34,045 bases of DNA from a bacterium (GTDB lineage: Bacteria > Patescibacteriota > Minisyncoccia > Phycocordibacterales > CAIRYW01). The position numbers were made by a program, and so were the translations under genes. Below are positions 8,282 to 29,258 of this stretch, in pieces; position 1 is the stretch's first letter, and each line of letters starts with the position of its first letter. The stretch is taken from positions 1-34,045 of the forward strand of contig JAYTUJ010000012.1 in NCBI GenBank assembly GCA_043744615.1, written 5' to 3'. Below the pieces are notes generated by a model. That model saw only the letters and a program-made list of their open reading frames with translations. It did no database searches and was not told the DNA's origin.

Positions 8282-8308
8282 ACATACAATGTAACACGAC
8301 ATCGTATA

Positions 8309-8349: not shown

Positions 8350-8916
8350 TTAATATTTTCTGATGACTCCTTTAACAACGGCGGCAATTCTAAAATTTTC
8401 TTTTGGATAAATTGGTTTAAAATCTTTATTTGCTGGTTCAAGATATAATTGAGCTCCTTTTTTGCGAAGATACTTCATTGTCCAGCCACCATCGACTTCT
8501 GCAATTACAATATCTCCTATTTTTGGTTCTTGCTTTCGTTCTACAATAACAAGATCACCTTCTTTGATTCCTTCGTCTATCATTGAATCCCCTTTTACTT
8601 CAAGAATATAACTTGCTTCTTTGTGCTCAATTAAATAATCGTCAATACTGAGTGTATCTTTAAAATCGGAATCAGCCATTGTTGGAATTCCCGCTTCAAC
8701 CAAACCAAGAAAAGGAACTTCATTAAATGCTCGATTAGGAGTTAACTTACCATTTGAATCTTTGGATACAATATCCATGTCTACAAGTTTTTGTATTAAT
8801 TTATATACAGCATTTTTTGATTTGAAACCAGTAAGTTCCATAATCTCTTTGTATCCGGGCATTCGCTTGTTTTTTTGATAAAAAGCGATGAACTTGTTTT
8901 TGTATTCTTCGATCAT
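8350..8916 (-). CDS. lexA: LexA SOS repressor
   Basis: N-terminal wHTH (PGYKEIMELTGFKS), Ala-Gly cleavage site VEAG, catalytic Ser in GDSM and Lys in WTMK. Confidence 0.93.
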   Translation of the reverse strand: MIEEYKNKFIAFYQKNKRMPGYKEIMELTGFKSKNAVYKLIQKLVDMDIVSKDSNGKLTPNRAFNEVPFLGLVEAGIPTMADSDFKDTLSIDDYLIEHKEASYILEVKGDSMIDEGIKEGDLVIVERKQEPKIGDIVIAEVDGGWTMKYLRKKGAQLYLEPANKDFKPIYPKENFRIAAVVKGVIRKY

Positions 8917-8949: not shown

Positions 8950-9159
8950 TTAGAAAAAAAGTGATGGTACGATATTTGCCATTCGTCTCATCCAATTTGC
9001 ATTACTTGCTTGAGCAAATCGTGATAAGCGAGAGAGTAAAAACTTGTGTTGTTTTGACTCACGAGCATATGAGACTCCTTTAATAATTTTAAGATCAATT
9101 TGCTGATTAATCTTTGAAAGCTCGGTTTCTATTGTTTTGATTAAATTGTTTTTACTCAT
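8950..9159 (-). CDS. Small hypothetical protein upstream of lexA
   Basis: 69 aa from ATG 9159. The track start 9219 lies inside the promoter and operator. Confidence 0.7.
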   Translation of the reverse strand: MSKNNLIKTIETELSKINQQIDLKIIKGVSYARESKQHKFLLSRLSRFAQASNANWMRRMANIVPSLFF

Positions 9160-9197
9160 ATATTTAAGTGTTTTTTGATTTAAAACGTTATATATGT

Positions 9198-9226
9198 AGT
9201 ATAGTGAACTATGGTTCACCTGTCAA
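9198..9226 (-). promoter_or_regulatory. Sigma70 promoter with LexA-type operator in the spacer
   Basis: TTGACA(9226-21)-N17-TATACT(9203-9198); palindrome GTGAAC-TATG-GTTCAC at 9204-9219. Confidence 0.85.
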
Positions 9227-9245: not shown

Positions 9246-9254
9246 TGTGGATAA
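9246..9254 (-). promoter_or_regulatory. Consensus DnaA box
   Basis: TGTGGATAA, the reverse complement of TTATCCACA; single copy. Confidence 0.45.
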
Positions 9255-28841: not shown

Positions 28842-29258
28842 TTAAGCAAAAATCTTGAGCGCAATACGACCTAAGATTTCTCTAACTTCTTGCATATTAG
28901 ATTCTAACTTTTTTTCGATAGAATCAAGCCGGTTTTCTATTACATCAAGACGATTTTCGATTGCATCGAGACGCTTATCTATAGTGTCGAGTCGTTGTTC
29001 AACAATATCAAGACGATTTTCTATTACACTAAATCGTTTATCGATTGCATCAAATTTTTTGTCTATCGCTTCGAATCTCTTATCAATTACCTCAAATTTT
29101 TCATCGATAGCATCAAATTTCTTATCAATAGATTTAAATTTTTCATCGATCTGATCAAATCGATAAAGAGTAACTTCAAAAATATCTTTTGCTTTGCTTG
29201 TTATTCTTGTATCGAGATATTCCTCAAAATACTTCTTTTCTTCTGTTGTAATGCTCAT
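28842..29258 (-). CDS. Heptad-repeat coiled-coil protein
   Basis: Twelve heptads of the form (F/L)xx(I/V)(D/E)x(K/R), arising from degenerate 21-nt repeats. Confidence 0.8.
   Translation of the reverse strand: MSITTEEKKYFEEYLDTRITSKAKDIFEVTLYRFDQIDEKFKSIDKKFDAIDEKFEVIDKRFEAIDKKFDAIDKRFSVIENRLDIVEQRLDTIDKRLDAIENRLDVIENRLDSIEKKLESNMQEVREILGRIALKIFA

Follow-up and report, generated by a model that had tools for sequence, protein, structure and literature searches.

The Cheo box, GAAC-N4-GTTC, is the Gram-positive-type LexA operator. Among the small proteins linked to the SOS response, TisB is an SOS-induced, membrane-acting growth-arrest toxin, YnzC/DUF896 is an SOS hairpin of Firmicutes, and the fold of Sda is a helical hairpin. 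Closest to the locus described here are the division inhibitors YneA (Bacillus), SosA (Staphylococcus), SidA (Caulobacter), and DdrR, which the available text of a recent account presents as small, lineage-specific, mutually non-homologous, and encoded beside the SOS repressor (PMC13689564). It adds that YneA, SosA, and SidA lack homologues in other lineages and are repressed by the neighboring SOS repressor. The same text reports that DdrR of Acinetobacter was recently shown to be a division inhibitor without a transmembrane domain (PMC13689564). In the available parts of two papers, DdrR is both a co-repressor and a division inhibitor, and the regulon of UmuDAb is little more than UmuDAb itself and the error-prone polymerases (PMC13689564, PMC11332147). 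Dual control by DnaA and LexA has been described, in the portions of the papers at hand, for sda of Bacillus subtilis (PMC11925247) and for uvrB and recN of E. coli (PMC8203912).

SOS division inhibitors share no homology, and therefore the inhibitor of each lineage needs a separate discovery. For Patescibacteria, no SOS division inhibitor is described in the literature that we searched, which covered few subscription journals, and the same search found no published description of the protein family reported here. From sequence comparison, this appears to be an undescribed family of small proteins in a minimal LexA circuit of Paceibacteria, and its function is a prediction. We tentatively propose, with a little less than even confidence, that the 69-aa member encoded in this window (the whole stretch of DNA analyzed, 34,045 nucleotides) is a division checkpoint protein of the SOS response that is anchored to the membrane, an analogue but not a homologue of YneA, SosA, and DdrR.

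The boxed promoter and its two genes

The features of the locus are as follows.

8350 to 8916, minus strand: LexA-type S24 repressor of 188 aa, second gene of the predicted operon (TIGR00498, PF00717)
8950 to 9159, minus strand: 69-aa gene of a Paceibacteria family, encoding a conserved helical hairpin (residues 3 to 48), a variable linker, and an amphipathic tail (open reading frame, homologues, dN/dS)
8953 to 8994, minus strand: last 14 codons of that gene, a predicted membrane-targeting amphipathic helix (hydrophobic moment 0.65)
9198 to 9203, minus strand: -10 hexamer TATACT (promoter scan; all 57 boxed loci have TATACT or TATAAT)
9204 to 9219, no strand assigned: palindromic operator GTGAAC-TATG-GTTCAC, a likely LexA site by prediction (seen in the sequence; conserved arms)
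9221 to 9226, minus strand: -35 hexamer TTGACA (promoter scan; TTG at the equivalent place in 56 of 57 boxed loci)
9246 to 9254, minus strand: putative DnaA-type box TTATCCACA, placed 19 nt ahead of the -35 hexamer (seen in the sequence)

The small gene runs from an ATG at 9159 to a stop at 8950, and lexA starts 33 nt after it. The TTGACA and TATACT hexamers are separated by 17 nt, match the consensus at 11 of 12 positions, and form the best of 34 promoter-like sites between 7000 and 12000. The palindrome occupies 16 of the 17 spacer bases (9204 to 9219). The original prediction had described a palindrome in the promoter spacer, followed by a 69-aa frame and then lexA; the sequence confirms each of these with exact coordinates, and the C-terminal tail that it quoted is present at the end of the translation.

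We compared this locus with its relatives, which after removal of duplicates gave 64 distinct small-gene loci, 57 of them with the box ahead of the small gene (the boxed loci below). The position of the box within the promoter is identical in 57 of 57 boxed loci, its arms are invariant in 56 to 57, and its four central bases are variable. Scored with a weight matrix built from relatives, with the locus itself left out, the operator reaches 25.9 bits, more than any other non-coding site in the 709-kb genome; under the same matrix, none of five genome shuffles contained a site reaching 20 bits. A shuffle control on the window with two mismatches allowed (1 found, mean of 1.1 expected) carries no significance alone. 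A coding region of the source genome contains one site of equal quality (C30:57780), which means that a perfect site can arise by chance once per genome. Since single perfect sites do arise by chance, it is the conserved position that provides real evidence for an operator.

An upstream GTG start, which would lengthen the product to 89 aa, was rejected because this GTG falls within the operator itself. In 16 of the 57 boxed loci (e.g., L002, L003, and L004), the -10 hexamer lies 6 to 7 nt from the ATG and the small-gene mRNA is predicted to be leaderless; the leader is longer at this locus. Rfam gave no match around the locus.

The repressor passes TIGR00498 narrowly (116 bits, cutoff of 110.95), with a match that begins at model position 20, and it contains a peptidase S24 domain (PF00717, E 4e-28). 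Its Ala75-Gly76 cleavage site and its Ser111/Lys148 dyad are invariant in 46 of 46 aligned orthologues. The canonical LexA DNA-binding domain, PF01726, had no match in the repressor at E 0.1, and only a weak HTH_36 match was seen (E 0.017). It is the sole copy of its clade in the source genome. Second copies of this clade in other genomes are separate lexA-dinB cassettes without the small gene (G004:C18, G010:C15, G013:C47, and G018:C1). The top 30 LexA hits from the class Paceibacteria (L093 to L122) are mostly canonical LexA fusions of 450 to 620 aa, and in the five inspected the fusion partners look like DNA methyltransferase domains.

Behind lexA, an HTH + Panacea/SocA antitoxin gene (249 aa) starts after 50 nt, in a cluster at 8302 to 5847 of the window (minus strand) that also holds a 112-aa RelE-looking frame without a family match, a HicB-like/HicA pair, and a DUF4145 gene. 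No terminator was found between lexA and this toxin-antitoxin cluster, and read-through into it from the boxed promoter is possible. The genes downstream of lexA, including the cluster here, are not conserved in relatives. Elsewhere in the window, a 138-aa open reading frame of tandem heptad repeats lies between two tRNA-Thr genes (28842 to 29258, minus strand).

The hairpin family and its repressor partners

A profile search with the 69-aa protein found 840 homologues at 90% clustering and 375 at 50% clustering. The named records are Patescibacteria/Paceibacteria-type assemblies, several of which are labelled Saccharibacteria. The small gene is present in 18 of the 21 family genomes, is patchy in the class (14 of 251 genomes), and occurs in 3 of 301 genomes of the phylum, all three from the same order. 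Values of dN/dS were 0 to 0.15 in the six closest small-gene pairs; nine more distant pairs gave 0.25 to 0.74, with synonymous sites so near saturation that these values are uninformative. By its homologues and its pattern of substitution, the 69-aa frame is a real, conserved, and unannotated Paceibacteria protein family. A phage origin was rejected, as viral contigs gave no relative of the protein.

AlphaFold predicts a confident hairpin formed by helices 3 to 27 and 32 to 48 (pLDDT of 83 to 98 by block). Eight positions are invariant in 139 sequences (E13, N18, I21, D22, I25, G28, Y31, and H38), and the family is strongly basic (median net charge of +9, pI of 10.6). We found no significant match for the 69-aa protein in Pfam, NCBIfam, PHROGs, or PADLOC, no match in a PDB sequence search at E 10, and no named hit in the ESM Atlas, which returned only unnamed Minisyncoccota clusters. 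Fold searches led only to generic hairpins (Foldseek, best E of 0.78; VIA, best Z of 8.1). No fusion of the small protein was present among 7990 longer candidates (196 to 2000 aa), which is weak evidence. Several known families were tried and rejected. Sda (PF08970) and YnzC/DUF896 (PF05979) left the frame unmatched at E 10 in five genomes by profile search, and Sda was not among the top 25 families for the 139 members. The UVR hairpin (PF02151) gave no profile match and an hhalign probability of 0.9% against 10 UvrB/UvrC domains. DinI (PF06183) and SulA (PF03846) had profile matches in 0 of 5 genomes, with a control that detects E. coli SulA.

An S24 repressor adjoins the small gene in 63 of 64 loci; the gene order takes three forms, and the repressors belong to two unrelated clades. 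Twenty-three of the 64 loci were fetched by a lexA query, and there the linkage to lexA exists by construction; when the small protein was the query, a repressor adjoined all 13 hits from the class and all 27 distinct named loci. This LexA clade is the neighbor in 60 loci. In 56 of them the small gene comes first with the box ahead of it, in three lexA comes first with the box ahead of lexA, and in one the upstream sequence is too short to see the box. The 57th boxed locus reaches a contig edge before lexA. Overall, the small gene is co-oriented ahead of lexA in 57 of 64 loci, and the intergenic gap is at most 33 nt in 46 of 57. Between the small gene and lexA, two or three lineages have a further short frame (38 to 58 aa), basic and aromatic, that is conserved within each lineage (loci L007, L008, L010, and L018; L009 and L012; L003).

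The three other repressor-linked loci come from genomes of another family. Here, an S24 repressor of another kind, 210 aa long, is encoded divergently from the small gene, and the small gene lacks the box. These genomes lack this LexA clade yet keep the hairpin intact, and the swapped repressor scores only 33 to 34 bits against this LexA. Trees place the two groups of partner repressors apart, and a single clade is rejected (AU p of 8e-5) in a test whose repressor group was named after the first tree was seen; the swap itself rests on three related genomes and is probably one event. No shared operator was evident in eight upstream regions of the swapped repressor clade. Conversely, this LexA clade occurs without the small gene in 12 loci.

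The box precedes most members of this LexA clade even when the small gene is missing, and it is absent where the clade is absent or replaced. This supports, by inference, autoregulation by LexA. The original prediction had taken the palindrome for a LexA box; the comparison supports its assignment as the predicted operator of this LexA clade, one that tracks the repressor and not the small gene. Both lexA synteny and the box, which it had proposed to follow, are kept across Paceibacteria.

Such tight linkage (63 of 64 loci, mostly with gaps of 33 nt or less) is also consistent with a hairpin that binds the LexA dimer and tunes its operator binding or its cleavage, in the manner of DdrR or gp7 of phage GIL01. 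The available text of one paper reports that UmuDAb, when bound by DdrR, binds DNA about twofold better, and that gp7 does likewise for LexA (PMC11332147). We regard this co-repressor or modulator role as a serious alternative but an unlikely one. After a repressor swap, one would expect a protein fitted to the LexA surface to diverge or disappear, but the hairpin is unchanged beside the unrelated repressor; a payload under damage control would accept a new repressor. Moreover, the LexA clade manages without the small gene in 12 loci, a pure co-repressor would leave the circuit of genomes that lack DinB without a conserved output, and the role needs no membrane-type tail. The retention of the hairpin beside an unrelated repressor, together with the position of the small gene as the main output of the circuit (see below), thus favors an effector over a LexA helper. 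Modulation of LexA could coexist with a division block, as it does in DdrR.

The DnaA-type box, the C-terminal tail, and the regulon

Upstream of the promoter stands TTATCCACA (9246 to 9254), which we take to be a DnaA-type box and which the original prediction did not mention. Of the 57 boxed loci, 55 have a forward match with at most one mismatch in the 60 nt that precede the operator, and in 43 the match is exact. These boxes share a single orientation, and their distances cluster at 16 to 17, 23 to 27, and 34 to 36 nt. For comparison, a forward match within 150 nt occurs in 6 of the 211 free upstream regions in the source genome. The small gene kept the box after the repressor swap (3 of 3 loci), and it is exact in 1 of the 12 lexA loci without the small gene. 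Two broader readings of the box were rejected: it is not a general promoter element of the source genome (13 of 211 regions, 10 when shuffled), nor is it unique to the small-gene operon, as it also stands before 25 of 26 other lexA or lexA-methyltransferase genes, with an exact box within 150 nt upstream in 22 of the 26. Exact boxes also occur upstream of pilin-, SecA-, and tyrosine recombinase-like frames of the source genome (G000, contigs C5 and C49); these labels (type IV pilin, SecA, and tyrosine recombinase) were read off the sequences, with no library behind them.

A target in replication is one way to read this layout. The protein would tether DnaA, the sliding clamp, or DNA to the membrane and so stop initiation or segregation after damage. 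The box with its near helical-turn phasing points in this direction, as does the fact that it stays after the repressor swap but is exact in just one of the 12 gene-less loci. The strongly basic charge of the protein and the precedent of sda, a small checkpoint gene under both DnaA and LexA in the available text (PMC11925247), are on the same side. Still, we consider a replication or chromosome checkpoint quite improbable. A DnaA box bears on regulation, not on the target; the box also stands ahead of lexA-methyltransferase fusions, and the related loci are not independent. In addition, a DnaA gene was not found in the 87%-complete source assembly, though it is present in 5 of 5 relatives.

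At the other end of the small gene, the original prediction had seen in the C terminus what looked like a membrane-targeting helix of the MinD/FtsA type. The best 14-residue hydrophobic moment is 0.65, a value reached by 3% of 532 C termini of the genome (shuffle p of 0.01), and AlphaFold assigns the tail a pLDDT of only 58. A membrane-anchor criterion that was set post hoc selects 54% of 169 family members, compared with 1.5% of the 532 genome C termini, and it also selects the tail of the source genome's own FtsA (moment of 0.59 versus 0.65). Across the family, the last 18 residues contain on average 3.7 Phe/Trp and 0.3 acidic residues. The amphipathic periodicity is modest (median shuffle p of 0.09; p below 0.05 for 31% of tails), and the tail is missing from 7 of 318 family sequences, which end at most 16 residues after H38. 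A transmembrane-like stretch, with a 17-residue Kyte-Doolittle maximum above 1.6, occurs in just 0.6% of the 169 members. Thus, the FtsA/MinD analogy stands for composition, which is aromatic, basic, and acid poor like that of the genome's FtsA tail, and is weakened by the modest periodicity and by the tail-less members. We predict from these features that the small protein attaches to the membrane via its tail.

A tail of this composition, aromatic, basic, and nearly free of acidic residues, would also suit a TisB-like toxin that is induced by SOS, acts on the membrane itself, and causes growth arrest and dormancy; alternatively, the hydrophobic tail could be a protease tag and not an anchor. 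Tight repression within the promoter spacer suggests a harmful product, in keeping with a toxin. What makes these readings very unlikely is that conservation lies in the soluble hairpin, with its eight invariant positions in 139 sequences, and not in the tail, which implies a specific partner.

The reach of the operator was assessed in the 21 family genomes, which hold 33 exact 14-bp sites: 19 at lexA-operon promoters and 14 elsewhere. The 14 extra sites are at the level of chance, as a reversed-pattern control gave 18. Of the 12 extras that were inspected, nine lie in coding frames, one in the promoter of a second lexA-dinB cassette, and two in intergenic DNA, neither of which is followed by a frame of at least 60 aa. 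A homologous stretch with the same 14-bp palindrome and no clear gene behind it occurs in L153 (G016:C4:10637) and L156 (G002:C1:142537) and may be a structured RNA. Upstream of recA, no site was found in the 21 genomes, one of which had just 65 nt to scan; the best score was -0.8 bits, compared with 20.7 to 27.5 for true sites. The source genome has no other non-coding operator site above 15 bits. It does have a one-mismatch operator 134 nt before smc (G000:C27:26041), and smc was rejected as a second regulon member, as a site of at least 14 bits is present in 1 of 21 genomes and not kept in the 20 relatives. As recA lacks a box, the sites surveyed do not amount to a canonical SOS regulon, and this LexA is by this measure no global SOS repressor in these genomes.

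A search for DinB succeeded in 12 of the 21 genomes; in 11 of these it lies shortly after a lexA-clade gene, which makes the control of mutagenesis an equally real role of the clade. In the other nine genomes DinB was not found; eight of these carry the small gene, and they include genomes that are 97, 99, and 100% complete. Since no DinB was seen in eight carriers, the main output of the circuit would seem to be the small gene. In these carriers, the small protein would be the only conserved product of derepression besides LexA, to judge from the sites surveyed; degenerate or weak LexA sites, or read-through into unconserved downstream genes, could give other outputs. These eight carriers also bear on a role as a modulator of RecA or of the DinB polymerase, akin to DinI or to a UmuD-like accessory. 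The retrieved flanks of 11 of 64 loci include DinB, and all 21 family genomes have RecA, but with the DinB-less carriers, the common lexA-dinB cassettes without the small gene, and no similarity to DinI, such a role is highly improbable.

Finally, it is scarcely credible that the palindrome is no damage switch at all, being bound by another factor or by the small protein itself, or serving a LexA loop that merely buffers its own level: this LexA has no PF01726 match, its NCBIfam match starts at model position 20, and the available text of one paper cites the Patescibacteria LexA motif among direct-repeat types (PMC7739468), but the box accompanies the LexA clade whether or not the small gene is there and is missing wherever the clade is missing, and the cleavage site and catalytic dyad are invariant. 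The operator or the operon may already be listed in the 2017 Patescibacteria SOS paper (doi 10.1111/1462-2920.13826) or its supplements.

A proposed division checkpoint and its known counterparts

In the checkpoint that we propose, the small gene heads a two-gene unit with lexA behind the boxed promoter. By known S24 chemistry, LexA dimers would occupy the promoter spacer and block RNA polymerase, and RecA filaments would trigger self-cleavage of LexA at Ala75-Gly76, so that both genes are transcribed; newly made LexA would then close the loop again. The layout suggests that DnaA at the upstream box could add an input for replication status. The tail is predicted to bind the inner membrane in the way of FtsA and MinD tails. 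For the hairpin, the prediction is that its invariant face (E13, N18, I21, D22, I25, G28, Y31, and H38) binds a conserved cytoplasmic partner. If the precedents are a guide, cell division would likely be delayed until the DNA is repaired. We propose a division block because small, non-homologous inhibitors adjoin the SOS repressor in several lineages; our guess for the partner of the hairpin is a divisome protein, for instance FtsZ or FtsA. By the same analogy, one point counts against a division inhibitor: the known Gram-positive inhibitors span the membrane, unlike all but fewer than 1% of this family.

A more specific version, for which our support is tentative and the chances are rather against it, is a minimal two-gene damage checkpoint of CPR bacteria. 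In it, the repressor would be kept almost solely to gate one inhibitor of a new kind, a soluble hairpin on an FtsA-like membrane helix that competes at the Z-ring; LexA and DnaA inputs would meet at one promoter, and the repressor would be interchangeable in evolution. If the protein does act at the Z-ring, it would represent a new inhibitor architecture, and a 0.7-Mb symbiont would have retained a cell cycle checkpoint while dropping LexA control of repair genes. In practical terms, the locus offers one concrete candidate inhibitor that is small and easily expressed, with eight invariant residues and a removable tail.

The control region resembles known ones in part. The operator has the same core as the Cheo box and likewise lies in the promoter of a lexA unit, but its flanks are fixed (GTGAAC...GTTCAC) and recA is unboxed. 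The repressor differs from the LexA proteins of Cheo-box systems in belonging to a short, 188-aa clade far from the canonical Paceibacteria LexAs. The small gene would resemble sda of B. subtilis, a small checkpoint gene that, in the available text, DnaA activates and LexA represses (PMC11925247). Sda shares the hairpin shape predicted for the small protein, but it inhibits sporulation kinases and is unlinked to lexA. The tail shares with the membrane-targeting helices of FtsA and MinD an aromatic, basic, acid-poor, and amphipathic stretch of the last 14 to 18 residues, whereas it is joined to a 48-residue hairpin and not to an ATPase and is missing in a few family members.

DdrR, as far as it is described in the accessible text, is also a protein of 70 to 80 aa, genus restricted, and encoded beside an S24 repressor with a tiny regulon. 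The ddrR-umuDAb pair differs in its divergent layout and its atypical operator, and that text reports no amphipathic tail. No Acinetobacter appears among the named homologues of the small protein. Searches of family libraries found no sequence similarity to YneA, SosA, or SidA. Those three are membrane proteins, whereas this family has no spanning helix and a predicted amphipathic anchor; their genes are usually divergent from lexA, whereas the small gene is mostly co-oriented ahead of it (57 of 64 loci). What the small gene has in common with yneA, sosA, sidA, and ddrR is that it is small, lineage specific, adjacent to an SOS repressor, and boxed.
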